Assembly (NCBI GenBank): GCA_963727525.1
Contig: CAVSGO010000005.1
Span: 32,001 to 96,000, forward strand
From: an uncultured bacterium
GTDB taxonomy: Bacteria; Krumholzibacteriota; Krumholzibacteriia; LZORAL124-64-63
Reading direction: 5' to 3'
DNA length: 64,000 bases
In this document: positions 36,401-53,996 of the stretch, piece after piece
Layout of the letters: every line of letters starts with the position of its first letter
Position numbering within the stretch: position 1 is the first letter of the stretch
The notes under the pieces: generated by a model
What the model saw: the letters and a program-made list of their open reading frames with translations, nothing else
Told to the model about the DNA's origin: nothing
The model's database searches: none
Translations under genes and position numbers: made by a program

Positions 36401-36565
36401 GCCGTCCCACGTGGGGTGCGCCTGCTTGAACGCCACCGCCCCCATGTCGTCGTTCGGCAGGTAGTTCCAGCCCTGCCCCGGCGCTGCGGCCAGGATGGGC
36501 GAAGCCACCACGAGGATGGCGACGAGGACAGCGAGACGACGACCGGACCGCAATGCACGACGCAT
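33491..36565 (-). CDS. Secreted S8 peptidase, tripeptidyl-peptidase II-like
   Basis: VAILDTGVD, long D-H insert, HGSHCAGIAAG, ISCKLGDNRL, NMSFG, SAGNEGP, NGTSMASP. Confidence 0.88.
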   Translation of the reverse strand: MRRALRSGRRLAVLVAILVVASPILAAAPGQGWNYLPNDDMGAVAFKQAHPTWDGRGVVVAILDTGVDAFMPGMQTTTTGRTKLIEVRDFSTEGDWETQKATVADGVVKNEDGDLALRGADGLRVPPVSSDPVGHPVFIGAIREHQFVNNPEVTDLNDDGDQTDVFAFVVYLVDRSIAEAALGQGKGTEFARGLNATAARTVDEERQSAKVWLVAVDTDGDGDLSTETCLRDYHVNFDTFALGGLDAPDAHTMMSWEVNVRENEDQRGTPKAPTAEFHFDDGSHGSHCAGIAAGRAVSGQEGLDGVAPGAWVISCKLGDNRLSGGATRTESMKKAYEYAVDFGKRYGLPVVVNMSFGIAAVEEGEDHMGKWLDDLLADNPDFYVCQSAGNEGPGLSSIGLPATSPSVISSGAYLSVGTGADLYDTHLDRNTLFAFSSRGGESAKPDVVSPGSALSTVPGYVEGMARYNGTSMASPETAGAVACLLSAAQQEGLKTHWGMMKRALIAGATRVEGLSLLDQGGGLVTLSSTWPLLETLAKSKSAHDILWYRIETACPLQSDGLAEAAYWRTPGGAPVKPEQVTFTVHPIFNPDLTPDQKDTYFRSFTFKSEADWLRVISGKRYIRGDMGMTVNVEYDGTKLKEPGLHAARVIASLDGGDLSGLAAREFALWNSVVVGEPLNADNGFSRTWTSKDLPASWVHHYYVNVPAGSSALRVRLEVDKEVGASRGARVLSEINDPEGHVHGGFAGYASLEGNPITDHVVTRPELTPGTWEITVASSRIAEDRGAYRLTASCDGYDATPDTLAALPRKGPGEPAKATLTVTRTFPGAFRGDIDAALVGFHRAWDVTVKDSDTWTYAFSLDAATPRASFRLVMDKNTGNLFTDCAVNILDSDGVAVAQTGFNGLEVDIATSLPDGVDSASYKLQVVGAFALAPDMKDWGFRAEQTTAFAQPVRGTAKQAGRDGLRLYCGMPTEVSLSFAGEWPAAPDGMGYTGRVRFLDRDLADKAAGDRTGRLVLEVPIAVAE

Positions 36566-36600
36566 GATCGACCTCCAGGAAACGTAGCGCGGACGCGAAA

Positions 36601-36626
36601 GGGCCCGTCCATGATAGGACGGGCCC
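36601..36626 (-). terminator. Hairpin between the Calx-beta gene and the TPPII-like gene
   Basis: gggcccgtcc-atgata-ggacgggccc; the loop reads TATCAT on the minus strand. Confidence 0.5.
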
Positions 36627-36662
36627 GGACGCAGGACAAGGAAGCACGGCGATGGACCGCCA

Positions 36663-38051
36663 TCAATGGAAGAGCGACTTCACCGCGCCCCAGCTCGCCG
36701 GTTCGATGGACATGCTGTTGTCCTCGATCCGCGTCTGCAGGTCGCTCGCCGTGAGCCCCGTGATGTTCGCGAGGTCGAGCGCCGACTGGAAGTCCGCCAT
36801 GGCGCCGCCCAGTTCCGGGCTGCCCACTTCGGCGAACTCGTTCATCACGCCCACGAGGGCGGCCTGCATCTCGGCGGTGATGAGGAAGCTGTCGCCCTGC
36901 CCGCCGACCTCGGCCCCCACGGCCGGCAGCCAGAGGTCCCACGCTTCAGCCACGCGGTGAATGAGCGCGGGGCGCTGCAGGACCGCCACGGCGAGATCGT
37001 CGGAGAGATCGTGGTAGAGCTGCACGTAGTAATCGCCCACGGTCGACGGCACCAGGATCTCGTCGCGGTACCGGCGCAACATATCCAGGTCTGGCCCCGG
37101 GTTGAACGTCTTGTCGCCGGCGGGATATTCCGTCTCAGCGTCGTCGAGCCGTTTATCGGGACAGGGCAGGCCGCAAATGTCAGCGATCGGTGCGCAATCC
37201 GCCGGACGCATGATCGAATACATGTAGGCGAACACGCAGGCGAAGCAGTAGTCGGCGGATCCGTTGATTTCGTCGGCGAGGAATGCGAAGAGCACGAACC
37301 AGTTGGATGAGGAGACGCGCTTGTTCGTCTGATTCAGGAGACGGAGCTCGTGGGTCGCGGACAGGTCGCCGCCACTCACCGCGGCGGCCGGCACCTGCAA
37401 CGTCTGCCGGGTGCTGCCGCCGAACTCGAGGGCGTGCAGGCCGCCATCGATCGAACTTGTGTACCAGACCACCGCGCCACCGGGCGGCAGGGTGTCGATC
37501 ACCACGTCCACCGCGACCGTGGTGCCGGGCGCGGTGGCCTCGGTCAGGCGTCCCAACGGGTCGAGCGGGATGTCGTCCGACACCTCGAAGTGGGCCGGCG
37601 GCGTCTGCGAGTCGTCGTCGACGATCGTCAGGACCGCGGCCGAGGGCTCGCCCACCTGGTAGAGGGCGCCCCCGTCGATGAGGCTGAGCAGGATGGTTTC
37701 CGGCGGCTCCAGCACGCTATCATCGTAAATCTGTATGCTGGCGTAGACGGTGTCGGCAACGCCGGGTTCGAAAATCGTGAAGGTGGTGCCGGACACGAAG
37801 TCGTCGCCGAACGTCGCCGTACCGGGGTCGATCTGCACGTACACCGAGATGGCCGCCGACGGCGGTTCGGAGATGACGAGGGCCACCATAGCGTTCGTAT
37901 TCTGTTCCACGACACTGTACTGCGTGAAAGCGAAGCTCACGGTGGGCTGGGCGACCACCATACTCGCGGACGCGAGCAGGACGGCGCCGGCCAGGACGCT
38001 GACGGAAACAAGGATCGGGCGCCGACTGCGGCGCGGTGCGCGGGTGCTCAT
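36663..38051 (-). CDS. Secreted Calx-beta domain protein with a CFI-box-CTERM-like region and a 'WGxVK' C-terminal motif
   Basis: VSFAFTQYSVVE...GTATFGDDF...IYDDSVLEPPETILLSL...LTIVDDD; LRRYRDEIL...G.YYVQLY; terminal IEPASWGAVKSLFH. Confidence 0.78.
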   Translation of the reverse strand: MSTRAPRRSRRPILVSVSVLAGAVLLASASMVVAQPTVSFAFTQYSVVEQNTNAMVALVISEPPSAAISVYVQIDPGTATFGDDFVSGTTFTIFEPGVADTVYASIQIYDDSVLEPPETILLSLIDGGALYQVGEPSAAVLTIVDDDSQTPPAHFEVSDDIPLDPLGRLTEATAPGTTVAVDVVIDTLPPGGAVVWYTSSIDGGLHALEFGGSTRQTLQVPAAAVSGGDLSATHELRLLNQTNKRVSSSNWFVLFAFLADEINGSADYCFACVFAYMYSIMRPADCAPIADICGLPCPDKRLDDAETEYPAGDKTFNPGPDLDMLRRYRDEILVPSTVGDYYVQLYHDLSDDLAVAVLQRPALIHRVAEAWDLWLPAVGAEVGGQGDSFLITAEMQAALVGVMNEFAEVGSPELGGAMADFQSALDLANITGLTASDLQTRIEDNSMSIEPASWGAVKSLFH

Positions 38052-38339
38052 TGCGAAACTCCTCACTGGCGAGTCGCGGCGAAGCCGGCGACGGAATCGG
38101 TACTGGTAAACGGTGCGCGAGCGCGCTGTCCCTGATATGAGACAGTTTTCGTCCCCGCGAATCACAGAGCCCGGGCAATTTCTTGCCGCCAGCCCCCGCG
38201 TTGGCGAGGCGCCGCACCGCTGCCTATTATTGAGTGGCCGTCTCGAGACCGGCCCGGGCTCGCCACGCCGCGTCCTGGCCGCGATTCGCCGACAAATCTC
38301 GCCGTCGGGCGCCCCGCGCCACCCTGGGAAGGATCGATC

Positions 38340-39530
38340 ATGCGCGATGTCAGCAAGCTGGGACCGATGACCCGCATCATCCACGCCGGACAGCACCCCG
38401 ACCCGGTCACGGGTGCGGTGTCCACCCCGATCTACCAGTCGTCCACCTTCGCTTTCCGCGATGCCGATCATGGCGCGGCCTGTTTCCGCGGCGAGGTGGC
38501 CGACGGTTTCATTTACACCCGGCTGGGCAATCCCACGACCCGCGCGCTCGAGGAGAGCATCGCCACGCTGGAACATGGCTGTGGTGCCCTCGCCTGCGCC
38601 TCCGGCATGGCGGCGGTGAATCTGGTGTACTACGCGTTGCTGAGCCAGAACGACCACGCCGTTTGCACCGAGTCGCTCTACGGTCCGAGCCGCATGGTGC
38701 TGGAGACCGAGTACCCGCGCTTCGGCATCAGCGCCACGTTCGTCGACACCGCCGACGTGGCCAAGGTGGAGCAGGCCATCACGAAGCACACGAAGCTCGT
38801 CTATCTGGAGACGCCAGCCAACCCCACGCTGAAGCTGGCCGACGTCGAGGCCATCAGCGCCATCGCCCATGCGGCCGGCGCCGTGGTCTGCGTCGACAAC
38901 ACCTTCGCCTCGCCGGTACTGCAGAACCCTCTGCTGCAGGGCGCCGACATCGTCTTGCACAGCATGACCAAGTTCATCAACGGTCACACCGACGTGGTGG
39001 CCGGCGTGGTGGTGGCCAAGGAACCGGGAATGTACGCGCGCCTGCGCAAGGTGCATGTGAACCTGGGCGGTACGATGGATCCGCACCAGGCCTGGCTGGT
39101 GCTGCGCGGCGTCAAGACGCTGGGTCTGCGCATGGAGAAGGCGCAGGAGAACGCGCTGCGGCTGGCTCGGTGGCTCGAGAAACACCCCAAGATCTCCTGG
39201 ATCCGCTACCCCTTCCTCGAGAGCCACCCGCAGCACGCGCTCGCGAAGCGCCAGATGCGCGGCGGCGGCGCCGTGTTCTCCTTCGGCGTGAAAGGAGGCC
39301 TCGAGGCGGGCAAGATGCTGATCAACAACGTCGAGGTGGCCACGCTCGCCGTGAGCCTGGGCGGCATCGAGACCCTCATCGAGCATCCGGCCAGCATGAC
39401 CCATGCCGGCATCCCGGCCGCGGAACGGCTCAAGGCCGACATTTCCGACGACCTGGTGCGCATCGCCGTGGGCTGCGAGGACTACGCGGATATCGAGCAT
39501 GACCTGGCGCGGGTCCTGGACACGCTCTGA
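38340..39530 (+). CDS. PLP-dependent trans-sulfuration enzyme (methionine gamma-lyase-like)
   Basis: PIYQSSTF, YTRLGNPT, ASGMAA, ETPANP, VDNTFASP, HSMTKFINGH, AVSLGGIETLIEHPASMTH. Confidence 0.92.
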   Translation: MRDVSKLGPMTRIIHAGQHPDPVTGAVSTPIYQSSTFAFRDADHGAACFRGEVADGFIYTRLGNPTTRALEESIATLEHGCGALACASGMAAVNLVYYALLSQNDHAVCTESLYGPSRMVLETEYPRFGISATFVDTADVAKVEQAITKHTKLVYLETPANPTLKLADVEAISAIAHAAGAVVCVDNTFASPVLQNPLLQGADIVLHSMTKFINGHTDVVAGVVVAKEPGMYARLRKVHVNLGGTMDPHQAWLVLRGVKTLGLRMEKAQENALRLARWLEKHPKISWIRYPFLESHPQHALAKRQMRGGGAVFSFGVKGGLEAGKMLINNVEVATLAVSLGGIETLIEHPASMTHAGIPAAERLKADISDDLVRIAVGCEDYADIEHDLARVLDTL

Positions 39531-39532
39531 CC

Positions 39533-40816
39533 ATGCACAATCCGTGGGTCACACCGGACCGGATCCTCCCCCAGAATGGCGCGATCGATTGGGCCGTGGA
39601 CTACACGGCCCATCCCTTCCTCGATCCCACCATGCCCGACCGCGCGTCCCGGCTGCGCCGGTTCACCCAGCTCACCTGGGAGCGCATCCGCGACGACGAC
39701 GCGATCTACCGGCGCGAGGCCGCCCGCCTGCTGCGTCCGCTGCGCGGCGTACCGGGCGAGATCCAGCCGTGCCACGACGACATCGTCATCATCTCGGAGT
39801 ACCTGCAGGAAGCCGACGTCTACCTCTATTCCACCATCGACCTCTTGCCCGAGCCCTCGCGCGACGCGGTGCTGCCGCACGAGGACGTGAATCGCTGCCA
39901 CGACCTGCGCGAGCTGCTCGCCATGGTCTTCGGCGACGATCCCGGGCGCCGGCGCTTCGAGGCCCAGCGCAAGCTCTACCTGGCCAACCTGCTACTCGAC
40001 ATCGACCACTCGCGCCTGGTCCAGGACGGACCGCTCCACCTCGCGTACTTCGAGGAGTTGCTCGACAACGTGCTCTGGCGGCACAAGAAGCAGGAGTACG
40101 AGATCAAGATCGGTTTTCACATCGCGGACGATGGCGAGACGATCCGCTACTCGGCGCGGCCGCGGCGCAACGATCAGGTGTGGACGTTCCACTCCGCGTA
40201 CCTGGAGACGCCGAACGCGGGGGCGATGACGTCGCTCGACATCCTTTACTGGAATTGCCGCTTCAAGCGTTCGGTCGATCGCGTGAGCTTCGAGGTGGTG
40301 GATGGTCAGCACAAGGTGCTGGAACGGGTGCGCTGGAGCGAGATGCGCCAGCACCGCAGCGGGTCGATTCTCTCCAAGATGATCCGCCGCGGCATCAACA
40401 ACCCCGGGGAGATCGCCGACATGCTCGGCGCGATGTTCATCGTGCACGACGACGACGCCCTCAACGATCTCCTGGCGCTCCTCGACGCCGGCATCGGCAA
40501 CCCCTTCGGCTGGCGCAACGTCACCGACACCTTCGGCGCCGAGCCCGCGGGCAGCCGCCTCAATCGGCACAGCGCTGCCGGCTTCAAGGTCTTCAAGGGC
40601 GACGTCGACATCCTCATCCCGGGCCGCGGACCGGGCCAGCCGCCGTATCGATTCTCGGTGGAGATCCAGATCCACACGCTCGAGAGCTTCCTGCGGACGG
40701 TGTGCTCGGCGCACGCCGCCAGCCACCTGGCGCTCAAGCTAAGGCAGTTCGTGAGCGGGCTGGTACCGTACCTTTTCCCCACATCGGTCTACGGCGAGGA
40801 ATGGCTGCGCTACTGA
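39533..40816 (+). CDS. Divergent RelA/SpoT-like nucleotidyltransferase-fold protein (TIGR04552/TIGR04562-like)
   Basis: SILSKMIRRG..EIADMLGAMFIV ... HSAAGFKVF ... SVEIQIHT ... SHLALKLRQ resemble degenerate synthetase motifs. Confidence 0.6.
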   Translation: MHNPWVTPDRILPQNGAIDWAVDYTAHPFLDPTMPDRASRLRRFTQLTWERIRDDDAIYRREAARLLRPLRGVPGEIQPCHDDIVIISEYLQEADVYLYSTIDLLPEPSRDAVLPHEDVNRCHDLRELLAMVFGDDPGRRRFEAQRKLYLANLLLDIDHSRLVQDGPLHLAYFEELLDNVLWRHKKQEYEIKIGFHIADDGETIRYSARPRRNDQVWTFHSAYLETPNAGAMTSLDILYWNCRFKRSVDRVSFEVVDGQHKVLERVRWSEMRQHRSGSILSKMIRRGINNPGEIADMLGAMFIVHDDDALNDLLALLDAGIGNPFGWRNVTDTFGAEPAGSRLNRHSAAGFKVFKGDVDILIPGRGPGQPPYRFSVEIQIHTLESFLRTVCSAHAASHLALKLRQFVSGLVPYLFPTSVYGEEWLRY

Positions 40817-40836: not shown

Positions 40837-41895
40837 TCAGTGCGTCCCCGGCGTGATGAGGTGGCACTTCTCGCAGAGCGGCCCCTGCTCCGGATCCCCG
40901 TAGGGATTCGGTAGCGGGAAGGACCCCGAGACTTCCCCATCGTCCTCGAGCAACGACACGTGGAAATCCCAGCGCCCCGCCGCCGGCGCCGACGAGGCGT
41001 GCGCGCGGTGGCAACTCAGGCACATGACGCGGCTGTTGCCGATCGGTCCGATCGTGCTCGTGGTGGCGGCACGAGTGTCCTCGAAGGGAACCTCGGGCAG
41101 GTAGGCGAGCGCAAAGGTACCGCCGCCCGGGTTGCGGGTGCCGTCGTAGTTGTTGTAGTTGCGCGCCGTGCCGTGGGACAGCGTGCTGTCGGTGGGGTGC
41201 TGGAAGACGCTGACCTGTTCCTCGTGATAGCGTCCATGGCAGTTCGCGCACCAATCGGACATGCCCGCGCGATAGGCGGTATGGGATTCCGGCGTCTCGC
41301 CCGAGGCGAACCCCTGCGGCGGCAGCCCCACGGCCGTGGGTGCCGGATGGCTGAACTGGTAGCGTCCGCCCTGGATCTCGCCCACGCCGTACAGCATCCG
41401 GAAGTTGTCGTTGCCGTGCGGATCGTGGCAACTCGTGCAGCCGAGCCAGGCGCTCGGATAGGTGCCTCCGGGTGCCTCGGTGAAGCGCGTGTCGGCGTCG
41501 GCCCCGCGGTCCGGCGCCACGATGCTGTGGCCGGCCGCCTCGCCGGCGATGGGCTGCGTCAAACCGTCCGGACCATCGTTGATGTTGTCCTCGAGCAAGA
41601 AGACGAAGTTGCCGGCGCCGCGCTCGACCGGCGGGGTGAGCGGATTCTCCCCGAATACGCCACCCTGTCCGCCGTGGCACATCAGGCACACGTCGCTCGG
41701 ACTCGCCGCCACGAGCAGGGCCTCCCCGCCGTCGATCAGGACATCGCCGTCGCGTTCACCGTGGGTGACGTGGCAGGATGCACAGCTGGCGACACCCTTG
41801 TCGTGGAACGCGCGCGCCGTGGGTCCCGCGAGCAGGACCAGGAGCCCCAGGCCAACGCCGGTCAGGCGGGTCATGCTGGGTCGTATGGACTTCAT
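40837..41895 (-). CDS. Hexaheme c-type cytochrome, OmcS/OmcT-like paralogue
   Basis: Signal peptide ending ARA|FHDKGVASCASCHVTH; six CXXCH (CASCH, CLMCH, CTSCH, CANCH, CLSCH, CEKCH); APGGTYP, GMSDWCANCH, CLSCHRAHAS. Confidence 0.88.
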   Translation of the reverse strand: MKSIRPSMTRLTGVGLGLLVLLAGPTARAFHDKGVASCASCHVTHGERDGDVLIDGGEALLVAASPSDVCLMCHGGQGGVFGENPLTPPVERGAGNFVFLLEDNINDGPDGLTQPIAGEAAGHSIVAPDRGADADTRFTEAPGGTYPSAWLGCTSCHDPHGNDNFRMLYGVGEIQGGRYQFSHPAPTAVGLPPQGFASGETPESHTAYRAGMSDWCANCHGRYHEEQVSVFQHPTDSTLSHGTARNYNNYDGTRNPGGGTFALAYLPEVPFEDTRAATTSTIGPIGNSRVMCLSCHRAHASSAPAAGRWDFHVSLLEDDGEVSGSFPLPNPYGDPEQGPLCEKCHLITPGTH

Positions 41896-42013
41896 GATGG
41901 TCAGGAAGGCTCCCCGGGATGCGTGTTCGTTGCGAGCCGTATGCCCGCCCCCCACAATATGATAGCACATTGACCGCGTGTTTCCAGCAGCATTGTCGCC
42001 GAACGGCTTTGGG

Positions 42014-42047
42014 AAAAAGGAGACCCCGCGGAGCACGCCGCGGGGTC
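42014..42047 (-). terminator. Rho-independent terminator after the omcS-like gene
   Basis: Minus strand reads gaccccgcgg-cgtgct-ccgcggggtc-tccTTTTT. Confidence 0.8.
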
Positions 42048-42088
42048 CCCTGTCAGCAATCCCGTCGAGACGGGCCGAAGGTCCGCGA

Positions 42089-43192
42089 CTACTCGTTCGG
42101 GGCGTCGAACTCGTCCTTGACGTGGCACTTGTTGCACAGCGAGCGCTGGTTGTCGCTGAACGTGTACTGGTAGTACTTGTTCGTCACATCGTCAGCCGTC
42201 GCGCCGTCGTCGGTGATCTGCGGGTGGGATTCATTGATGAACGTCGTGCCCATGTCCCAGCGCGCGATGTCGGAGAAGGCCGACGCGTGCGCGCGGTGGC
42301 AGCTCAGGCACATGACCTTGTCGACGCTGTCCGGGCCCAGCGTGTAGTCCATGGAATCGACGGTCTCCAGGTCGACGTTGACGGCCTCGAACGGCACCAG
42401 ACCGGCGTACGCCGTCGCCTGATCGCCACCATTCGGGTCGTCGGTGCTGATGTAGGCGTTGTAGATGGCGGCCACGGTGCTGCCCAGGTTCTCGCCGGCA
42501 GGATGCACGTGGTTGGTCGTGTTGTCGGTCAGGAAGTTCGGGTGGCAGTTGGCGCACCACTCGCTCATGCCGCTCTTGTACACGGTGTGCTTGGCATCGG
42601 TCTCGTTGCCGTTGGTGTCGCCCACCATCGTGCGGCGGCTGTTGCCCTTGGCCAGCGGCGCCGCGCTGGTGAACGGGAAGCGGGTGCCGTCGTAGCGGGG
42701 GCCGGCACCGGCGCCGTAGAGCAGGCGGAAGTTGGCGTTGCCATGGGGATCGTGGCAGCTGGTGCACGCGAGGCGGCTGCTCAGGAAGTCGCCGCCGGGG
42801 GCATGCTCGAGCGTCTGGTCGACGTCGATGCCGTAGGCCGCGGACACGACGTTGTGGCCGTGGGAATCACCGGAGCTGACCGTGGTGTGGCCATGAGCGC
42901 TCCAGCTGTAGTCCTTGGTGACCCAGTAGAAGTCGCCGCCGGGGCCGTAGCCGGCGCCGCCATAGAACTGGCCGTAGTCGGCGTGGCAGCTCAGGCACAC
43001 GTCGGTCGGCGTCGCCGCGACGAGCAGGAACGGATAGCCGGTGGCGCTGTCGGTCACCTGCTCGCCGTCCTGGCTGTTGTGCATGGTGTGGCAGCCGGCG
43101 CACTCGGCGACGCCGCCAGCGTGAAACGCGAGCACCGCGTTGGCGCTCAGCGAGAGAGCGATGATGAGAGCAATCTTGAACGTGGTCTTCAC
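42089..43192 (-). CDS. omcS: Hexaheme c-type cytochrome, OmcS (nanowire subunit) homologue
   Basis: GGAGG plus GTG start; signal peptide ending VLA|FHAGGVAECAGCHTMHNS; six CXXCH; PGGDFYWVTKDYSW, GHNVV, APGG, CTSCHDPHG, GMSEWCANCH, HPAG, CLSCHRAHAS, QRSLCNKCHVKD. These match my recollection of Geobacter OmcS motifs. Confidence 0.9.
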   Translation of the reverse strand: MKTTFKIALIIALSLSANAVLAFHAGGVAECAGCHTMHNSQDGEQVTDSATGYPFLLVAATPTDVCLSCHADYGQFYGGAGYGPGGDFYWVTKDYSWSAHGHTTVSSGDSHGHNVVSAAYGIDVDQTLEHAPGGDFLSSRLACTSCHDPHGNANFRLLYGAGAGPRYDGTRFPFTSAAPLAKGNSRRTMVGDTNGNETDAKHTVYKSGMSEWCANCHPNFLTDNTTNHVHPAGENLGSTVAAIYNAYISTDDPNGGDQATAYAGLVPFEAVNVDLETVDSMDYTLGPDSVDKVMCLSCHRAHASAFSDIARWDMGTTFINESHPQITDDGATADDVTNKYYQYTFSDNQRSLCNKCHVKDEFDAPNE

Positions 43193-43391
43193 GGGTCTGC
43201 CTCCAACGGATTGCTACCAGGTTGTTCCGAACACCCGCGGTGCCCGGAGCGTTCGTGCCGTCAATCTCGATCACTGTCTGACACGACGAATCTCATATCG
43301 GTCGCTGCGGACTTTGCGTGCTTGGTTGCCGGTCTTCACTCCTTTCGTCATTCTTGCGCAGGCACATGCTGCAGGTTCGTGAGTGCCGCAA

Positions 43392-44357
43392 TCAGCGACG
43401 CCCGAGTTCTCGCATCCTGAAAACCTGCACGCGGCCCTCGAAGCCCTGAGCCACGTAGATCCGCCCCTCCGGCGTCGCGGCGAGCGCCAGCGGGTGATAG
43501 AGCTGTCCGGGTCGGAAGCCGAGCTTGCCGAACTCCGTGACGAACGTGTGGTCGCTGTCGAAGACGAGCACGCAGGCGCGCATGCGATCGAGCACCAGGA
43601 CCTCGCCCTGCGGCCCGAAAGCCACGGCGACCGGAAAGCTCATGCGGCCCGGCGACGAGCCGAAGCGTCCAAACGTGTCGAGCAAGGCGCCATCGGCGGC
43701 CAGGACGATGATGTGACGCAGATCGCCGCCGGGAACGTAGATGCGACCATCCGACGCCTCGGCCGGGCGCCCCATCGCCGTGAACGAGCGGCCTTCGCTG
43801 ATGTCGCGCTGCCACAGGAGTGCGCCGGTGTGCGCATCGTGCTTCGCCAGCACGCCGGAAGCCGAGTCCAGGGTCAGGTAGTCGCCATCGCGCGTGATCA
43901 GCAGATGGTCGGGATTCCAGTCGGCGATGGGCGGTTGCGCCGCGTAGGCGACGGGCTCGCCGAATACGTTCAGACGGCGGATCTCCGTGTGGAAATCGCG
44001 GCCGCGATCGGTGAACACGAATCCGCCATCGCGATCGATTGCGCCATCGGCGGGGTACGAGAGATCGGCGAGACGACTCGTGCGGAAAACCTCGACATCG
44101 CTCGGGTTGAGCAGGTGGAATATGGACTGGCGTACATCGGTGACGCAGATCTCGCCGTTGGTAGGATCGATGGAGATGGCCACCGGCCGCGGCTTGCCGA
44201 CGCTGCCCACGGAGAGCGGCAGCGTCGCCTCGTAGTCGAAGGCGTAGCCCGCGGCGCAGACCACGGCGTCGAGCAAGGCGGCAGTGATCGTTGTAAAAAC
44301 TACCAATTTCGTCAGCGTATTCACAACTCGCGAGCCTCGGAATGCGAAATCGGACAA
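43392..44357 (-). CDS. NHL-repeat beta-propeller protein (omcS-adjacent)
   Basis: FGRFGSSPGRMSFPVAVAF, FGKLGFRPGQLYHPLALA..GRIYV..RVQVF; alternative GTG start at 44324. Confidence 0.85.
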   Translation of the reverse strand: MSDFAFRGSRVVNTLTKLVVFTTITAALLDAVVCAAGYAFDYEATLPLSVGSVGKPRPVAISIDPTNGEICVTDVRQSIFHLLNPSDVEVFRTSRLADLSYPADGAIDRDGGFVFTDRGRDFHTEIRRLNVFGEPVAYAAQPPIADWNPDHLLITRDGDYLTLDSASGVLAKHDAHTGALLWQRDISEGRSFTAMGRPAEASDGRIYVPGGDLRHIIVLAADGALLDTFGRFGSSPGRMSFPVAVAFGPQGEVLVLDRMRACVLVFDSDHTFVTEFGKLGFRPGQLYHPLALAATPEGRIYVAQGFEGRVQVFRMRELGRR

Positions 44358-44415: not shown

Positions 44416-44443
44416 AGCATATCAAACAAAAAGTAACTGTCAA
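44416..44443 (-). promoter_or_regulatory. Sigma-70-type promoter for the NHL-omcS unit
   Basis: Minus strand TTGACA (44443-44438), 16-nt spacer, TGn-TATGCT (44421-44416), inside an AT-rich spacer. Confidence 0.6.
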
Positions 44444-44611: not shown

Positions 44612-47600
44612 TCACTCCCGCTTCTGGCGCAGCTTGTCGGTGTGGCACTGTACGCAGAGGCGGCCGCCCGGGTCCGCAGTGAGGAACTTCGGGAAGGCAC
44701 TCCCGTGCTCATCGTGGCAGCTCGCGCACCCCATCGGACCACCCGTGCGCGGATCCGTGACAGACGGCCCGACCGGGTGGTCGGTGTGCTCGGCGTAGGT
44801 GTGGCAACCCAGACACGGTTCGCGCCGCGGCCCGGCGGCGGCTGCCTGCGTCGGCGCCGCGAGATGGGGATCGTGGCACATGCTACAGGTCCGGTCGTCG
44901 ATCACCGGATGCGTGTACGCGGCCTGGCGACGCTGGTCAACCTGCTCGGCATGGCACTGGCCGCATACGTCAGCCTGCTCGCGCGGCATCAGGGCCGCCT
45001 TCGGCGTGGTGTGAGGCGCATGGCACACGGTGCAGGCACCCCCGTTCGCGAGCGGAGCGTGCGGCACGCCCACTTTCAGGTCCTCACCCAGCCCGCGATG
45101 GCAGGTGAAGCACAACGCGGGTTCCGGCTTCACGAGATCGGTCTTGCCCGACACGTGACAGGCCGTGCACTGACCCTTGCGGTAGGGCGCATGAACGACG
45201 GCATGCGGCAGCGATTTCGCGTCCGACGCGTGCGGGGCGTGGCACGAGGCGCAGTCGGCCTCGGCCACCGGGAAGCCCTGGTGCTTGGACTTGAGGGCCG
45301 CGGCCGATTCACGGTGACAGTGGCCGCACACCTCTCGCGGCGCGGCGCGCAGGCTCATCGCCACGCGGCCGCCGTGCGCATCGTGGCACCCGAGGCAGTT
45401 GCCGGCGCGGAACGGGGCATGCACGAAGGCCTTCTTCTGTGCGGCCTGCAGGTCCGCGTGGCATTCCCAGCACAGCTTGCCGGCGGGTACGCGCAGCAAT
45501 GCCTTCTGCTGCGACGCGTGGGGCTCGTGGCAGGCGTCGCACTTGCCGTCGCGAACGGGCGTGTGCGCGAACGCGGGATTCGGTGCGAGATCCGCGAGGG
45601 CGTGGCACGACTCGCATGTCTCGGCCACGGTATCGGACACGAGCAAGTGCTCGCCGCGGCTGACATGAGGATTATGACAGGCTGAGCATTCGCCGGCCGC
45701 AACCGGGGCATGCACGACCGGAGCTGCCCCATGCCCCGTTACGGGATCCTCGTGGCAGCCCGCGCACAGGCTCGACTGGTCGACGATCGGCGCTTTCGAT
45801 TCGTGGCACACCGTGCAATCGCCGTCGGCGAATGGCGGGTGGCTGCGGGCGTGCAGCAGCGACGGTCTCGTGGAGCGGTGCGGTTCGTGGCACCACATGC
45901 AGTCGAGAGTACTGGGATCGCGGTCGAGATGCTTCTCCCGGAACGCGCTGGCGTTCTCGTCATGGCACTGGAAACAGAGCGCGGGCACCGGCTCGTTCAG
46001 GAAGCCCTTGCCCTCGCCGCCATGCGCCTGGTGGCAGGCGAGGCAATCGCCCTGGGCCGGCGCGTGGATGGACACCGCACCCTCGGTGGACGCGACGTCC
46101 TGATGGCAGAGTGTGCAGAGCACCTCGGTCGGGGCGACGAGGAGCTGCTTCTGCGGCGACCGGTGGGGATCGTGGCATGCCGTGCAGTCGCCGGTAGCCA
46201 CCGGCTGGTGCGCGTGCCAGTTCGGGCTCTGCGCAACCTGCACATCATGGCAGGTCGCGCAGATCTGCTGCGCGGGCTCGCGCAGGAATGCGGGGTTGTC
46301 GCCACCGTGCGGCAAGTGGCAGGTGCTGCACTCGCCGGCGGCCGTGGGCGCATGCACGCTGCCGCCGTCAGGCGCCGTCACCATGTCTTCGTGGCAGCGC
46401 TGACAGAGCTGCTCGGGCGCCGTATTCAGGAGCTGCGGCTGTCCCGCCGCGTGCGGCTCGTGGCAGGCCAGGCATTCACCGCGGGCCACCACGTCATGCG
46501 GATGGGCAGACGCGATCTGGAGCTGCGTACTCACGTGACAGCTCAGACAGAGCGCGCCGGGCTTGTCCCTGAGGAGCGAGGCCTCGCTCGCACTGTGGGG
46601 GTCGTGGCACTTCGTGCAGTCCTTCTTGACGACGGGCGCGTGGGTCGACGCCGCATCGGCCGGCACGACGTCGTCGTGGCAGGTCGTGCACAGGTCGCGC
46701 GAAGCGGCGACCAGGAGGTGCGGCTGCTGACCACCGTGCGGCGTATGGCACTCGGCGCAGTCGCCGTCGGCCACTGGCGCGTGCACGTCGGCGCGCTGGA
46801 AGGCGGCCGCATCGTGGCACGCAAGGCAGGTGCGCGCCTGGTCGCTGACCAGCAAGTGGGCATACGGACTGCCGTGCGGCGCGTGGCACGCCAGGCAATC
46901 GCCATCGGCCGCCGGCGGATGGGGCTCCGTGGCGCCGGCCGTCACGTCGTCATGGCACGCCTGGCAGAGCTGGGGCACCGTCGCCAGGAGCGCATGGTCG
47001 TCGCGCATGGCACCGTCGCTCGTGGTCTCGTGGCAGGAGGCGCAGTCGCCGTCGGCCACCGGCGCGTGGCGCACGACGTGCAGCATCGCCCGGGAGTCGG
47101 AGCTGTGCGGATCGTGGCACGAGATGCAGCCGCTGGGCGCGGTGGTCGCGTTGCCATGGGCGCTCGCCAGCTTCGCTGCGTCGTCATGGCACGAGGCGCA
47201 GAGCGCGTCGGGAGCCTCCTTGAGCATCGCCAGCTGGTCCGACCCGTGCGGGTCGTGACAGACCACGCAGCCGTCCTTCTTCAGGGGCTCGTGCACGTAC
47301 TTGCGCGCGAAGGCGCCGGCGTCATGGCAGCGGGTGCAATCCTTCGCACCGCGAGCCTGCAGGAGATAGGGCTGGCCCGAACCGTGCGGATCGTGGCACG
47401 CCGCGCAGCCATCGTCCTTGATCGGCGGGTGCGTCACCTTGCGCTTCACGGCCGTCGCCACATCGTCATGGCACTCGAGGCAAAGCGTGTTGCCCGGCAG
47501 CTTGAGCGCGAGCTTGCCCACCACGCCGTGCCGGATATGGCATGCCTCGCAGTCTGCCGCCTTGAACGGCTCGTGGGCGTACTTGTCCTTCACCTGCGAC

Positions 47601-47737
47601 TTCATCGTGTCGTGGCAGTCGAGACAGGCCTTCTGCTTGAACGGCCCCGCCTGAGCCGTCGCCGCCAGCATCACGACGACGGCGAGGCTCAGGAGAGCCC
47701 ACCGGCGAGCTTCGGTCATGAAGGAGGTGCGGACCAC
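44612..47737 (-). CDS. Very large multiheme c-type cytochrome (42 CXXCH, doubled-CXXCH repeats)
   Basis: 42 CXXCH motifs counted by hand, mostly in the repeat H-x-P-x(4-6)-CXXCH-x-PH-x(13-15)-CXXCH; signal peptide ...AATAQA; GGAGG RBS before the GTG at 47737. Confidence 0.95.
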   Translation of the reverse strand: MVRTSFMTEARRWALLSLAVVVMLAATAQAGPFKQKACLDCHDTMKSQVKDKYAHEPFKAADCEACHIRHGVVGKLALKLPGNTLCLECHDDVATAVKRKVTHPPIKDDGCAACHDPHGSGQPYLLQARGAKDCTRCHDAGAFARKYVHEPLKKDGCVVCHDPHGSDQLAMLKEAPDALCASCHDDAAKLASAHGNATTAPSGCISCHDPHSSDSRAMLHVVRHAPVADGDCASCHETTSDGAMRDDHALLATVPQLCQACHDDVTAGATEPHPPAADGDCLACHAPHGSPYAHLLVSDQARTCLACHDAAAFQRADVHAPVADGDCAECHTPHGGQQPHLLVAASRDLCTTCHDDVVPADAASTHAPVVKKDCTKCHDPHSASEASLLRDKPGALCLSCHVSTQLQIASAHPHDVVARGECLACHEPHAAGQPQLLNTAPEQLCQRCHEDMVTAPDGGSVHAPTAAGECSTCHLPHGGDNPAFLREPAQQICATCHDVQVAQSPNWHAHQPVATGDCTACHDPHRSPQKQLLVAPTEVLCTLCHQDVASTEGAVSIHAPAQGDCLACHQAHGGEGKGFLNEPVPALCFQCHDENASAFREKHLDRDPSTLDCMWCHEPHRSTRPSLLHARSHPPFADGDCTVCHESKAPIVDQSSLCAGCHEDPVTGHGAAPVVHAPVAAGECSACHNPHVSRGEHLLVSDTVAETCESCHALADLAPNPAFAHTPVRDGKCDACHEPHASQQKALLRVPAGKLCWECHADLQAAQKKAFVHAPFRAGNCLGCHDAHGGRVAMSLRAAPREVCGHCHRESAAALKSKHQGFPVAEADCASCHAPHASDAKSLPHAVVHAPYRKGQCTACHVSGKTDLVKPEPALCFTCHRGLGEDLKVGVPHAPLANGGACTVCHAPHTTPKAALMPREQADVCGQCHAEQVDQRRQAAYTHPVIDDRTCSMCHDPHLAAPTQAAAAGPRREPCLGCHTYAEHTDHPVGPSVTDPRTGGPMGCASCHDEHGSAFPKFLTADPGGRLCVQCHTDKLRQKRE

Positions 47738-47764
47738 GGTGTATCCTCCCGCCACGTGGGCGAT

Positions 47765-49103: not shown

Positions 49104-50171
49104 TCAGGATTCCTTCCTCACCGAGCGAAGGTCTTGCCAGAGTCTATCGGCGGAGCGTTGCAAGATGCGCATGAGAGGCGTGGTGTCGGTGGACCCGAAC
49201 CACCGCACGTCGTCGCTGCGGTCGCGATACCGGGTGGCGCTGGCCGCCAGCAATCCGTCCGGAAGATCGATGGTCCGCAGCGTGAACGCGAAGTCGCGCA
49301 CACCCGTCGCATGCACACTGGGCGCGGCATCGTCGAACATGGCACTGCGCACGCCGCTGCCGCGCAGGTCGTCGAATGCGACCAGTTCCGGCCGCACGAG
49401 GGCGGACACGCCGAAATGGTCCTGGAGCTGCTGATACGCCGCGTGCTGCAATCGCTGCGGGTCGAATCCCGCGGCGAGCAGGTCGGACAGCACGAGCGCC
49501 GGATCGATGGGGCGGGCATCATGGCTGGCGAGCGCGGCGCCCAGGACGCAGAACGTCGCGGTCAGCGCCATGTCGGCATCACAACCCACGCCGATGGTCG
49601 GCATCACGAGCACCGATGCGGCACTCGTGGCGGGGGACACCGGGGAAGTGAGCTGAGCCATGACGCCTTGTACCGCCGCGAGCAAGGCCGCGGTCTCCCC
49701 CGCGGGATCCTCGCCGGTCAACCTCTCGGCCACTGGCTGCTCCGCGAGCCAGACCTGATTCACGCGTCCCGAACTCGTCTCGACGCCGCGAACCAGGGCC
49801 ACGACGCGCTGCGCCTCGACGATGACGTGCGCGACCACGAGATCAGCCACACCCACGCTATCGCGCGCAGCGGCGAGGAACGCCGGCGTCAAGAGCATGC
49901 TGCTGCGGATGCGCTCCTGCCGCGCAAGCGCCACGACTGCAGACGTCGGCGCGACATCGTGCCCCAGACGCTGCAATGCCGTCTCGCCGGCTCGCGTCAC
50001 GACGATGCGGAGCTGGCTCACGGTGATGGGCAGGACCGTTTCCGTACGGCCGCTGATGAAGACCAGGAGTCCCGTGCGCGCAGGAGCAGGCGCGGCCCAC
50101 ACCGGCCCGGCCGCCGCCAGCGTGGCGGCGAGCAGTCCGGCTGCGAATCGGTTGCGCGCGACGTCGGACAT
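49104..50171 (-). CDS. Secreted protein with two CsgG/TolB-N/LpoB-like alpha/beta domains
   Basis: Signal peptide; 'GVADLVVAHV...RGVETSSGRV' and 'GVSALVR...FAFTLRTIDLPDGLL'; start overlaps the upstream stop (TGATG). Confidence 0.55.
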   Translation of the reverse strand: MSDVARNRFAAGLLAATLAAAGPVWAAPAPARTGLLVFISGRTETVLPITVSQLRIVVTRAGETALQRLGHDVAPTSAVVALARQERIRSSMLLTPAFLAAARDSVGVADLVVAHVIVEAQRVVALVRGVETSSGRVNQVWLAEQPVAERLTGEDPAGETAALLAAVQGVMAQLTSPVSPATSAASVLVMPTIGVGCDADMALTATFCVLGAALASHDARPIDPALVLSDLLAAGFDPQRLQHAAYQQLQDHFGVSALVRPELVAFDDLRGSGVRSAMFDDAAPSVHATGVRDFAFTLRTIDLPDGLLAASATRYRDRSDDVRWFGSTDTTPLMRILQRSADRLWQDLRSVRKES

Positions 50172-50740
50172 CAGAACAACGTTTCCATGGCATCGTCGAC
50201 GGCCTCGCGTGTCACGTCGTAGAGACTCGCCGAGCCGCCACCGAAGAGCTTGCGCCAGATCGAGGTTCCGTTGCGATGGACCTGGCTCTGCCACACCAGG
50301 GACCCGGTCTGCGTCTCTGCCAATGCCAGCGTCAACGTCACTGCGTTGACGCGGTCGCCGCCGAGCTTCTCCGCCCCATAGTCCTCGACGGATCCGAAAA
50401 CGATGGCGTCGACACCGAGCTCCTTGCCGAGCGCCACGATCTGCTCGGACGAGGGATCCTGATTCGTGTCGAGCTTGAGGCTGCGGATCGCAGCGTAGAC
50501 CTGGCCTTCTTCGATCACACGCAGCGCGCCACGATCGAGCAGGTACGACATGACCACCGAGTAGACACGCGCGTCCGCGAACGGATCCGGTGTGCGATTC
50601 TGGAGGGGGTAGACAGCCGCGCGTTGGATGAAGCTGTAGTCGACATCCTCGCGCACGAAGGATGTCGGCCGAGAGGCGCAGCCTGGAAAGACCGCCCCCA
50701 CGACAAGCAGGATCCCCAGGCCGATTGTGGTTCGCTTCAT
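50171..50740 (-). CDS. Lipoprotein, CsgG / GNA1162 (DUF799) / LpoB-like fold
   Basis: Lipobox FPGC; AVYPLQNRT; LGKELGVDAIVFGSVEDYG; LAETQTGSLVWQS. Confidence 0.75.
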   Translation of the reverse strand: MKRTTIGLGILLVVGAVFPGCASRPTSFVREDVDYSFIQRAAVYPLQNRTPDPFADARVYSVVMSYLLDRGALRVIEEGQVYAAIRSLKLDTNQDPSSEQIVALGKELGVDAIVFGSVEDYGAEKLGGDRVNAVTLTLALAETQTGSLVWQSQVHRNGTSIWRKLFGGGSASLYDVTREAVDDAMETLF

Positions 50741-50795: not shown

Positions 50796-53006
50796 TCAGA
50801 AAGTCCAGGTCCCTCTCACGTTCCAGTTCGTCGGCGTATTACGATCTCCATGCTGCTTGACCAGAGTCCACTCCGCACCACCCTCGAAGCGCAGATGGCG
50901 GCGCGCCTTCCATACGGCGCCCCAGCCCGCGCCACGCTGCACGTAGTCGGTGCGGGTGTCCTGCTGGTCGGTGAGATAGAGTCGCAAATTCATGCTGCCA
51001 CCTGGCAGCGGGGTCCAGCTCAGGGTATTGCGTAGCAACCAGGCGTCTTCGTCGCGCACCTGGTACAGGACCTGACTGTTGAAGAACACGAGCGGCCGGA
51101 TGGACCAGTTGACATCGAGGCTCGTGTCGTTGAACGGCGTGAACCCGGAGCCCGCCTCCTGGTTGACCCAGCGATCGGCGCGACGCAGGTGCAGATCGAG
51201 GTAGGGCCGCGGCGCCCCGCGCACGTCGGACACGAGTACCCAGGAGTGGCTCTGCCCGTCCACGTCCTGCGCATCGCGAATGCCATAGGTGACCTTCTGG
51301 GCGAACGTGAGCCGCGGCTTGGCGTCCCAGGTCACGTCGCCCGTCCAGGAGTTCGTCGTACGGCGCTGGATGTCGCTCTGATCGTTCACGCGCGACCAGG
51401 CGACGCGCGCGCGCAGATCGGCCCGCCGGGCCGTGGCGACGGACACGTGCTGGGCCGTAACGTCCGTATTCTGCCGGGACGCGCTGATCACACGATTGAT
51501 CTGGTGGTCGGCCGACACAACCACGGGACCGGGCCGCCACGAGGCGCCGAACACATGGGCCATGCCGTAGACGTCGCGATCGTCGGTGTCGTAGTGGCGA
51601 CCAGTGAGGCTGGTGCTGTAGCGCACGCCGATGGTGGTCGTCAGGTCGTAGCCGATGTCGCCCTGCACACGATAGCGGTCGAGCGTGGAACGCACGCGCG
51701 TGTCGCCGCTGCCGGGCGCCGGTTCGTACACCTCCATCTCGTTCACGTAGAGGTCGGCCTCGGTGGGGCCGAACTTCTGATCGACGAGCTTGAGGCGACG
51801 ATGCGCGATCGGCGTGGCGAAGGTGAAGACCCAACCTTGACGGTTATCGGCCATCTCGTCCCAGACGACCGACACCTGACCCGCCGACAGCGGGTCGCCC
51901 CACTCACGCCCCTCGGGATCGTCGCTCACGTAGACCGACCAGGCGATCAGATCCGGGAAGCGGACGATGCGGTCGACGTAGAGGACGACCGACGCCATGG
52001 TCTGCGCCTCGCCGAAGTCGACGATGAGGTTGCGGAAGTCGCCGCCATACTGGCGCACGATCGAGGCCGAGTCGCCGATGTTGATCACGGTCGGCGTGTC
52101 GCGATCGCCGTCGGCCAGGGCCGTCACGGCCACGGGATCGAGCTCGAGCGGATCGAGGATCCCGGGCGTATCGTCGAGCGAGTAGCCGCTCCAGATCGGC
52201 GGCACGAGGATCGTGGCCCCGCTGCCGAATGCGGTGTTGGTCTGGCGGAAACGGCTGCCGGTGGCCTGGAGGGAATACCGTCCGCGGTGGTCGGCGAAGG
52301 CCCGCGCGCTACGCAGTTGCACCTCGTGGCTCACGTACTCGGTCTCATGGCCCTGAGTCTTGGCCCGCTGATCGCTGCGTGTGAACTGGTACTGCACGGA
52401 CTCGAACCGCGTGGGGTCGACCTCCACACGGCCCGACTGACGATGTTCGCGATTCTCCCGGCTCGTGCCGTTGGCCTCGCGCCACGATCCGATCTCGAGG
52501 GCGCGCGCCTCCAGTGAGATCTGCGCGAACTCGAGGCGCGACCAACCACCGTACTCCGCGTAGTCGTCCCGGCGGGACGTGCCGTCGGCATACCAGTAGT
52601 CGCGGCGCGAAGCGAGACCCGAGAGTCCGCTCCGCCACGCGCCCGTCTCGTAGTTCAGCAGCAGGCTCGGACTCGCGTACTCCGAATGCGACTTGCTGGT
52701 CGCGCCGTCGAAGCTGCTCTCGAGATGCTGGCGCCTCGCGACGGCACTGCTCAGGAGATCCAGGCCGCGCATGAATACGATACGTTGATCGAGGCGGTAG
52801 GTCTCGGTGAGCGTGGAGTTGTCGTAGGCCGTGAGTCCGGCGCCACCGCTCTGCCACGTATTCCAGAGGTCGGCGCGCCCGTTGAGGGCGAGCGCCGCAG
52901 GCGCGAGACCGGCAACCACGACGACGAGGAACAGGCAAGACGCCTGGACGTGCGCTCTGCTGCCCGCGCAGCACTCGTCGAATCGCGTTGCCGGAAGCAC
53001 TCGCAT
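50796..53006 (-). CDS. Outer-membrane beta-barrel protein with an inserted discoidin-like domain
   Basis: Alternating amphipathic strands throughout; C-terminal WNVRGTWTF (BAM signal); central NLIVDFGEAQ...RRLKLV...VNEMEVY. Start uncertain. Confidence 0.75.
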   Translation of the reverse strand: MRVLPATRFDECCAGSRAHVQASCLFLVVVVAGLAPAALALNGRADLWNTWQSGGAGLTAYDNSTLTETYRLDQRIVFMRGLDLLSSAVARRQHLESSFDGATSKSHSEYASPSLLLNYETGAWRSGLSGLASRRDYWYADGTSRRDDYAEYGGWSRLEFAQISLEARALEIGSWREANGTSRENREHRQSGRVEVDPTRFESVQYQFTRSDQRAKTQGHETEYVSHEVQLRSARAFADHRGRYSLQATGSRFRQTNTAFGSGATILVPPIWSGYSLDDTPGILDPLELDPVAVTALADGDRDTPTVINIGDSASIVRQYGGDFRNLIVDFGEAQTMASVVLYVDRIVRFPDLIAWSVYVSDDPEGREWGDPLSAGQVSVVWDEMADNRQGWVFTFATPIAHRRLKLVDQKFGPTEADLYVNEMEVYEPAPGSGDTRVRSTLDRYRVQGDIGYDLTTTIGVRYSTSLTGRHYDTDDRDVYGMAHVFGASWRPGPVVVSADHQINRVISASRQNTDVTAQHVSVATARRADLRARVAWSRVNDQSDIQRRTTNSWTGDVTWDAKPRLTFAQKVTYGIRDAQDVDGQSHSWVLVSDVRGAPRPYLDLHLRRADRWVNQEAGSGFTPFNDTSLDVNWSIRPLVFFNSQVLYQVRDEDAWLLRNTLSWTPLPGGSMNLRLYLTDQQDTRTDYVQRGAGWGAVWKARRHLRFEGGAEWTLVKQHGDRNTPTNWNVRGTWTF

Positions 53007-53168
53007 CCTCGTGAATCCTGTATCGCCGCGGCGATGCGTCCCCCACAACGCGTGACTTCGCTGCACGGTGCTGTCGAAATGTGGTTAAAAGCGTAACAGT
53101 ATGGCGTCACGGAATCAAATAATTCCTAATTATCAGTCGGATTTCTTGACAGACAACGTTCGGATTTC

Positions 53169-53996
53169 TCAGAAGCCGGCCTGGGCGACCTGCGGCGACG
53201 GCACGCCTGGCGACGCGAATTGATGGCAACCGAGGCAGAGATCCCGCGGTGGGTCGAACGGGATCAGAAGGTCGCGCGTGGTCGCCGTCAGCAAGTGGCA
53301 CGTCTGGCACTCGAGCCGCCCCGCCGGCAACGGTAGGCGGCTGTCGAGATCGGCCCGCAAGCGGCTGCCGGGAATCGTCTGCCCCGCACGCACCGCGATG
53401 CCGAAGGGATGACTCGCGTGCTCGTCGAACCGCGGACCGGTCTCGGCCCCTCGTTCACGCCAGAACGACGCTTTGTTACCGGAATGGCAACCGAGACAAC
53501 CCTCGGACGGGGAGAGCCCGGCGAGCCGCTTCGCGTCCTCGTGATAGAGTCTCGCGGCTTCACGATGCGCATCCGAGACCTGGGCAAGATCGTGCCCCGG
53601 CCCGTGGCATGACCGGCAATGGGCCGCGTCCACGGTGCGCAGACTCGCCAGCGACAGGCTGCCGAGCGGCGTCGCGACGGCATCGGGCGCATGGAAGGCA
53701 TGGCAGCGCACGCAATCGGGAGCATCCGCGCCCCCGCCCCGCACCTGGTGGAACCAGGTCGCGAGCGCACGGGTCGAGGCCGGATGCGCGCCATGGCAAC
53801 TCCGGCACGCCGCCGTCGACGCGTTCCCGCCGGCCGACGCACCGCTGGCGGAACGGAGATGGCAGAGGCGGCAATCCACTCCGGAGTGCGCCGTCGCTTG
53901 GCCCGGATCGGCCGCGCCAGCCGACGCGGCGAGGAGGACCAGGGCTGCGAGGATCACCCCCGCCAACCGGCGATGCTTGATCACGTTGCTCATCAT
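53169..53996 (-). CDS. Heptaheme c-type cytochrome
   Basis: Signal peptide; seven CXXCH (CRLCH, CRSCH, CVRCH, CRSCH, CLGCH, CQTCH, CLGCH); SHPFG..LPLPAGRLECQTCH. Confidence 0.88.
   Translation of the reverse strand: MMSNVIKHRRLAGVILAALVLLAASAGAADPGQATAHSGVDCRLCHLRSASGASAGGNASTAACRSCHGAHPASTRALATWFHQVRGGGADAPDCVRCHAFHAPDAVATPLGSLSLASLRTVDAAHCRSCHGPGHDLAQVSDAHREAARLYHEDAKRLAGLSPSEGCLGCHSGNKASFWRERGAETGPRFDEHASHPFGIAVRAGQTIPGSRLRADLDSRLPLPAGRLECQTCHLLTATTRDLLIPFDPPRDLCLGCHQFASPGVPSPQVAQAGF

Follow-up and report, generated by a model that had tools for sequence, protein, structure and literature searches.

A 64,000-nucleotide stretch of DNA from an uncultured bacterium of the class Krumholzibacteriia (assembly GCA_963727525.1, contig CAVSGO010000005.1, positions 32,001 to 96,000; this whole stretch is referred to below as the window) encodes on its reverse strand a six-haem cytochrome, here called gene A (table 1), the product of which almost certainly belongs to the family of OmcS, the nanowire cytochrome of Geobacter sulfurreducens. 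Taking sequence, predicted fold and neighboring genes together, we consider it probable that gene A encodes a secreted hexahaem cytochrome that forms a wire and is assembled with the help of companion proteins; that the product forms filaments at all is, by analogy with OmcS, fairly probable. Judged from sequence and model, it is a sound filament candidate, and neither minimal nor unusual.

Gene A is an uninterrupted frame of 367 codons that starts with GTG 7 nucleotides behind a Shine-Dalgarno-like element, and it specifies a precursor of 367 amino acids and a mature chain of 345. Residues 1-22 form a hydrophobic Sec-type leader with the last residues NAVLA, a reading made by eye and backed by alignment: residue 23, a Phe, pairs in the phmmer alignment with the first residue of mature OmcS (6EF8 and 6NEF), and the mature N-terminus of gene A is therefore taken to be FHAGGVAECAGCHTMH, in which mature residues 2, 13 and 16 are His. 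The six CXXCH motifs begin at precursor residues 31, 66, 143, 213, 295 and 353, each pairing with an OmcS motif in the same order, and QRSLCNKCHVKD lies near the C-terminus with 7 residues remaining after it. An earlier note on this DNA, made from the letters alone, had described just such a precursor, with His16 in its predicted mature N-terminus, six CXXCH motifs and a C-terminal motif, and each of these readings is borne out. Two generic multihaem models, neither of them specific for OmcS, also match: Pfam PF09699 (Paired_CXXCH_1) with 59.1 bits against a cut-off of 20.6, and TIGR01905 with 51 bits against 25.2.

Among all PDB chain sequences, OmcS is the single phmmer match for gene A (expectation value E 7.4e-55). 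The alignment falls into two pieces, gene A 23-153 to OmcS 1-150 and gene A 154-360 to OmcS 185-407, leaving OmcS 151-184, right after the third haem motif, without a counterpart. That the protein is shorter than OmcS and lacks a loop at this point had been proposed before and is correct, with the qualification that the loss extends to all five inter-haem segments. Cys-to-Cys spacings between haem motifs, counted by hand from the printed alignment, are 35/77/70/82/58 (sum 322) in gene A and 38/93/99/89/72 (sum 391) in OmcS; of the 69 residues by which the stretch from haem 1 to haem 6 is shorter, 29, under half, are missing from the segment after haem 3, and the remainder is spread across the other four segments, with 16 residues lost after haem 2. 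Set against the 407 residues of mature OmcS, the mature chain is 62 residues shorter, whereas its C-terminal tail is 7 residues longer.

Structure prediction supports the same assignment. AlphaFold2 run on the gene A sequence alone gave an unusable model (predicted local distance difference test, pLDDT, 29.7); supplied with a family alignment, A2, it gave a pLDDT of 91.7 and a predicted template modeling score of 0.88, the lowest-confidence parts being the signal peptide, the first mature residues and approximately residues 221-230. The 133 rows of A2 consist of gene A, its paralogue B (the gene directly downstream, 42% identical to A), 19 chosen close relatives and 112 representatives of a 50%-identity library. 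A Foldseek search of the model against the PDB returned 6ef8_A (E 4.9e-25, template modeling scores 0.78/0.70) and no other match below E 2. VIA-align superposed model residues 23-360 on OmcS 1-407 with Z 33.4 and a root-mean-square deviation of 2.4 Å over 326 residues, at 42% identity in the structural alignment; the next rows were an Mtr chain (Z 5.7) and OmcE (Z 4.2 over 131 residues). The overlap with OmcE is weak, and the tetrahaem OmcE nanowire (PDB 7TFS), which has an insulated haem chain and a His donated across the subunit interface according to the relevant passages of PMC9473688, differs from gene A in its unrelated sequence and fold, its four haems and its separate gene cluster, the last as given in part of PMC13712944. 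Sequence and fold thus agree with the earlier proposal of an OmcS homologue, and by alignment and model the gene A product is an OmcS with shorter loops.

The likeness to OmcS (GSU2504) extends to a near-identical N-terminal arm, a C-terminal LCNKCH.KD common to both, and the same six distal His, His2 and His16 included. In OmcS all 12 axial ligands are His; 11 belong to the subunit itself, and a neighbor supplies one ligand of haem 505, as stated in the passages on ligation of Filman et al. (2019, PMC6584659); the eLife paper on OmcZ (PMC9473688), where it touches on OmcS axial ligation, agrees in general terms. Exactly 12 His columns are at least 90% conserved across A2, and gene A has all of them: the His of the six CXXCH motifs and precursor H24, H38, H113, H150, H230 and H302 (H2, H16, H91, H128, H208 and H280 in mature numbering), each of the latter pairing with an OmcS His. 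All six distal ligands, the loss of any of which would speak against a wire, are kept, and by analogy with OmcS (PMC6584659) the 12 His of gene A would ligate the haem irons.

His16 stands three residues past the haem-1 ligand, at the opposite end of the chain from haem 5. Because the 12 conserved His would all be needed for six bis-His haems, with none to spare, and His16 is remote from haem 5, a monomer with the geometry of OmcS would leave haem 5 without a sixth ligand. This combination of ligand count and geometry is the strongest argument for polymerization of the gene A product. The best-conserved 18-residue window of the family is its N-terminal 18 residues (0.76 against a mean of 0.51), and the next conserved blocks lie at haem 3 (0.75) and haem 5 (0.74); conservation of the arm and of haem 5 fits a contact between the two, without being proof of one.

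It should be noted that the earlier note took His16 for the hallmark of polymerization, which does not hold, since the residue does not mark polymerizers: CxxCHxxH at the first motif is found in 121 of the 133 family sequences, paralogue B shares it, and some of the 12 exceptions have an extra or missing motif and may be mis-registered. By homology, His16 is necessary for filament formation and non-discriminating, and it should not serve as a filament predictor. Another His sets gene A apart from OmcS, which has Arg at the corresponding place: precursor H202 (codon about 42587-42589), eleven residues ahead of the fourth haem motif. Within the six-motif sequences this position is His in 31 of 31 compact, 13 of 22 intermediate and 8 of 66 long forms, and Arg in 46 of the 66 long forms, a His/Arg switch that tracks protein length in the family. 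Precursor H111 is likewise His in 26 of 31 compact sequences.

Following the example of OmcS, gene A subunits would stack head to tail into an extracellular haem wire, with His16 in the N-terminal arm of each supplying the sixth ligand of haem 5 in the next one, and electrons would hop along the resulting continuous chain of bis-His haems, either towards or away from minerals or partner cells. Of the proteins encoded alongside, the peptidyl-prolyl isomerase (PPIase)-domain protein, the barrel-like 736-residue protein and the NHL propeller would serve folding, export and assembly, and the neighboring 42-haem and 7-haem cytochromes would feed electrons to the wire. A complex prediction with two mature copies of A and four haems gave no answer in either run (score 0.00, controls not folded) and speaks neither for nor against a wire. 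OmcS has been seen as a filament, whereas gene A is known here from sequence and model.

The gene neighborhood resembles that of OmcS-like genes in Geobacter, with the difference that the window comes from another phylum and that its OmcS-like genes form the 3′ end of the companion cluster (table 1). An NHL-repeat gene adjoins gene A as GSU2505 adjoins omcS, going by the passage on GSU2505 in PMC9070056, and the genes GSU2500-2493, next to the omcS-like GSU2501, are linked to OmcS maturation and secretion in a passage of a bioRxiv paper (10.1101/2025.11.06.686851, PMC12977616) that cites Shen et al. 2025. Matched by gene kind, the GSU2500-GSU2493 block shares several components with the cluster here, all encoded beside an OmcS-like gene: a protein with a PPIase domain, a giant multihaem cytochrome, a beta-propeller and a large protein of barrel-like character. 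The two clusters differ in the giant cytochrome, which has 42 CXXCH motifs here, whereas a literature passage quotes 26 haems for GSU2495, and in a 396-residue exported protein that is of narrow distribution, as described below. By the kinds of gene present, the cluster likely holds the companions that an OmcS-type wire would call for, with roles assigned from the literature.

Two of the companions match nothing that would name them. The 396-residue protein has no Pfam match, and the protein of about 736 residues has neither a Pfam match nor a PDB match at E ≤ 1 (phmmer); its signal peptide and C-terminal aromatic residue make the latter a candidate outer-membrane barrel or channel. The motifs of the 42-CXXCH cytochrome are regularly spaced at about 23-25 residues, and its N-terminus weakly resembles NrfH, scoring 61.7 bits where the cut-off is 134; from its sequence, this protein could span the periplasm from the inner membrane.

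A scan of one genome per species yielded 237 relatives, and the 79 loci kept are spread over the Krumholzibacteriia, Gemmatimonadota, Desulfobacterota, Fibrobacteria, Zixibacteria, Ignavibacteria, Nitrospirota, Acidobacteriota, Eisenbacteria, Rokubacteria and others. Companion proteins were searched against these loci with tblastn (E ≤ 1e-5); many loci are short contigs, and misses are partly truncation. Homologues were recovered at 46 loci for the NHL protein, 39 for the giant cytochrome, 18 for the PPIase-domain protein, 9 for the barrel-like protein and 6 for the 7-haem cytochrome, and for the 396-residue protein only at the two loci L004 and L030. Locus L004 keeps the full order (barrel-like protein, 396-residue protein, PPIase, giant cytochrome, NHL, A, second OmcS-like gene) and L030 the same order through gene A, with no second OmcS-like gene found there; the short contig L003 carries the giant cytochrome, NHL, A and B. 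Two Geobacter sp. loci also hold such companions beside an OmcS-like gene: in L055 an NHL protein (E 7.8e-12), a PPIase (1.9e-16) and a giant cytochrome (6.3e-82), and in L059 a barrel-like protein (5.8e-7, 20% identity over 707 amino acids), a PPIase (1.3e-11) and a giant cytochrome (8.8e-130).

Several points weigh against a wire built from gene A. Direct evidence of polymerization was found neither for gene A nor for any member of the compact clade. The distal ligands and His16 are nearly family-wide, paralogue B and, by the literature, Geobacter paralogues not known as wires included, and cannot alone predict a filament. Wang and colleagues are said to have identified His16 in 2019 as the trans ligand of haem 5 in OmcS; a passage naming it as such was not found in the literature searched. 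Residues of OmcS that are missing here may contribute to the OmcS subunit interface, and the extra His of the compact clade, H202 and H111, could in principle alter the ligation scheme. The roles of the companion genes rest on what Shen and colleagues reportedly described in Cell Chem Biol in 2025, namely an 'osc' cluster, GSU2500-GSU2493, with a PPIase chaperone, channel-like proteins and a beta-propeller. The gene is also patchy: a family match at E ≤ 1e-10 is present in 15 of 41 genomes, the source genome counted, with 11 of 24 genomes of the same family and 3 of 16 genomes of other families in the class. By this distribution the OmcS-like module is accessory, with the pairing of two OmcS-family genes conserved.

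The family-wide occurrence of His16 would also suit a product that does not polymerize, a monomeric or small-oligomer carrier at the outer surface or in the periplasm that keeps fold and ligands by descent, like OmcT, OmcJ and GSU2501. G. sulfurreducens has three further OmcS relatives, and of the four paralogues only OmcS is known as a wire in the account given in part of PMC12977616, which adds that homology and hidden Markov model calls over-predict nanowires. OmcT (GSU2503), GSU2501 and OmcJ (GSU0701) are hexahaem proteins of the same family as A and B, encoded in tandem or beside the companion block; in the portions of the literature that cover them no wire is known, and their likeness to A and B is at the family level, with no orthology claimed. 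Such a carrier nevertheless seems unlikely for gene A: its haem 5 would lack a sixth ligand if the geometry of OmcS holds (the fit has Z 33.4), no block of the family is better conserved than the N-terminal arm, and the companion cluster is conserved beside the gene.

A part for paralogue B in the wire has also to be weighed. B has a precursor of 352 amino acids, counted from Met48 of the listed open reading frame (a start picked from the signal-peptide reading), and a mature chain of about 323; it keeps all 12 His and the FH...CxxCHxxH arm, and it is more compact than A. A genome search identified A and B as the sole family members in the 4.66-Mb genome. Two OmcS-family matches lie within about 3 kb on one contig in the genomes of seven relatives, and two OmcS-family genes are also paired in L003 and L004. 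B-type sequences (47-58% identical to B) are the better match in Ignavibacteria, Fibrobacteria, Zixibacteria, Acidobacteriota, Eisenbacteria and other loci, often with NHL, PPIase and giant-cytochrome genes nearby, and the cluster-linked GSU2501 type may be ancestral in the view of the mBio authors, as expressed in part of PMC12977616. The wire could on these grounds be made of B, or of A and B together, with B as the shaft and A as an accessory or cap, as a heteropolymer, or with B as nucleator or anchor. Against this, A is nearer to OmcS (E 7.4e-55 versus 4.6e-29 for B), and a B-type partner is not obligatory, the second gene being A-like in L004 (55% identical to A versus 43% to B) and in G006 and G009 (54-56% identical to A).

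The signals for expression likewise favor A over B. Gene A directly follows the NHL gene, and 38 nucleotides past its stop lies a strong hairpin with a 14-pair stem, a 6-nucleotide loop and then five U, a pattern that fits a highly expressed major subunit. The fold of this region has an energy of -43.3 kcal/mol (z -2.68); the hairpin is not listed by a consensus terminator scan. L003 and L004 have a strong hairpin in the equivalent position behind their A-type gene, so that all three loci examined carry one. Sigma-70-like elements, identified as consensus matches only, precede both B and the NHL gene, and the promoter-like element of B, TGCTATCAT, is also present in L003. This arrangement points to joint transcription of NHL and A and attenuation ahead of B, in keeping with a major subunit, and because a strong hairpin follows A and B has a promoter-like site of its own, gene A is probably the major subunit. 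We therefore regard a wire of B, or of A and B, as quite improbable.

Among sequencing runs, only two contained sampled words, in small shares (0.07 and 0.06). Most run pieces are 38-71-nucleotide matches to conserved haem motifs of relatives; only a 301-nucleotide contig from a salt-marsh metatranscriptome, which aligns to 42331-42631 with 2 differences, and one 255-nucleotide DNA contig with 3 differences look like the source organism. The former hints weakly at transcription of gene A in a near-identical strain, given that DNA can occur in RNA libraries. The contigs cannot rank A against B, and parts that they leave uncovered carry no meaning.

More far-reaching, and in our view very unlikely, is the idea that the compact pair is an ancestral two-part OmcS wire, with A as the shaft, B as nucleator or anchor and stripped-down companions, charged by the 42-haem cytochrome spanning the periplasm in a phylum without PpcA-type carriers. 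If this were true, the 326 superposing residues would be the true polymerization core and the Geobacter protein a loop-expanded derivative. A quick, unrooted FastTree analysis of 119 six-motif sequences, calculated with no outgroup, groups the compact forms of A type and B type on the same side of a well-supported split (28 rows, 26 of them compact, support 98) and nests most long forms in a clade of 63 rows (support 99); because the tree has no root, no ancestral direction between compact and long forms is drawn. As to the carriers, the genome has 24 stop-to-stop open reading frames with at least three CXXCH motifs, including proteins of 42, 20, 19, 19, 16, 13 and 10 haems. None has exactly three motifs by this crude stop-to-stop count, and a PpcA-type trihaem carrier is unlikely for that reason. 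Multihaem frames lie, among other places, at C6:104256-110716, and the genome also carries a gene for cytochrome c assembly.

Chance accumulation of CXXCH motifs, or a pseudogene, is already refuted by the full-length match to OmcS and its fold, by the intact frame with its Shine-Dalgarno element and signal peptide, and by more than 100 clusters of the same length at 63-71% identity.

These clusters show how ordinary the compact form is. Of 8000 candidates scored in a word-indexed protein search with gene A, 4581 had E ≤ 0.001; 107 of the best 119 non-self clusters, at 63-71% identity, are 359-379 amino acids long, and the named ones among these 119 are metagenome-assembled genomes (MAGs) of Candidatus Krumholzibacteriia, Krumholzibacteria, Candidatus Eisenbacteria or unclassified bacteria. 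An exhaustive search of 50%-identity representatives found 878 clusters at E ≤ 1e-3, 388 at ≤ 1e-10 and 139 at ≤ 1e-30, with lengths from about 340 to 524. By these counts the compact form is a large and ordinary metagenomic clade. The description of gene A as a minimal nanowire subunit, also put forward in the earlier note, has to be abandoned. Of the 133 A2 sequences, 119 have exactly six motifs, and their spans from haem 1 to haem 6 lie between 299 and 482, with a median of 378 in a sample enriched for compact forms by the 19 added close relatives; gene A, at 322, is longer than paralogue B (303) and than seven further lineages (P0210, P0135, P0141, P0127, P0187, P0123 and P0174) that span 299-317.

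If gene A polymerizes, OmcS-type wires and their assembly genes would extend to the Krumholzibacteriia, and a subunit 15% smaller than OmcS that superposes on it nearly residue for residue would help to define what a wire needs. The value of this is practical, not conceptual: shorter members exist, a Krumholzibacteria MAG with OmcS genes was already described in 2021 in a passage of PMC7914226, OmcS homologues are described as widespread in part of Portela 2024 (PMC10954620), and the companion genes are described likewise in passages of papers citing Shen 2025.

Table 1. Gene A, its paralogue, the companion genes and candidate expression signals, in window coordinates.
Feature	Position	Strand	Basis
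Paralogue B, OmcS family	40837..41895	-	OmcS match E 4.6e-29, six CXXCH
Sigma-70-like promoter match ahead of B, TGGAAA-16-TATCAT with TG extension	41959..41986	-	Consensus match only
G- and C-rich hairpin, candidate terminator or attenuator	42014..42051	-	RNA fold of 42005-42092(-)
Gene A, OmcS-family hexahaem cytochrome	42089..43192	-	Open reading frame, translation, six CXXCH, OmcS match
Signal peptide of gene A, 22 codons	43127..43192	-	Read from translation and OmcS alignment
Shine-Dalgarno-like GGAGG	43200..43204	-	Sequence reading; 7 nucleotides ahead of gene A GTG
NHL-repeat beta-propeller gene, directly upstream of A	43392..44357	-	Pfam NHL E 3.5e-10; PDB NHL propellers to E 1.6e-33
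Sigma-70-like promoter match ahead of NHL gene, TTGACA-16-TATGCT	44416..44443	-	Consensus match only
Multihaem cytochrome, 1047 amino acids, 42 CXXCH	44612..47755	-	Motif count, Pfam Paired_CXXCH_1
PpiC-type PPIase-domain protein, 445 amino acids	47765..49102	-	Pfam Rotamase_2 E 3.4e-12
Exported protein, 396 amino acids, no known family	49104..50294	-	Signal-peptide-like stretch; probable start about 50171
Exported protein, about 736 amino acids, ending TWTF	50796..53066	-	Signal peptide, C-terminal aromatic; probable start 53006
Cytochrome, 275 amino acids, 7 CXXCH, head of cluster	53169..53996	-	Motif count

The genes flanking the cluster were also surveyed. A forward-strand frame of 427 amino acids at 39533-40816 runs towards paralogue B; neither Pfam nor NCBIfam gives a match for it, and no homologue was found in the 79 related loci. 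Downstream of the cluster, window positions 33491-39500 on the reverse strand encode a subtilase-family protein (1024 amino acids) and a Calx-beta-domain protein. Just upstream of the cytochrome cluster, at 54041-56099 on the reverse strand, lies hemA (glutamyl-tRNA reductase), the sole GlutR_N match in the genome. It is split across two overlapping frames, with the change near 54631-54690: GlutR_N and the first part of the NAD-binding domain fall in one, and the remainder, with the dimerization domain, in the other. Given the 24 multihaem cytochromes of this genome, a one-base assembly error is a more likely cause of the split than a pseudogene.

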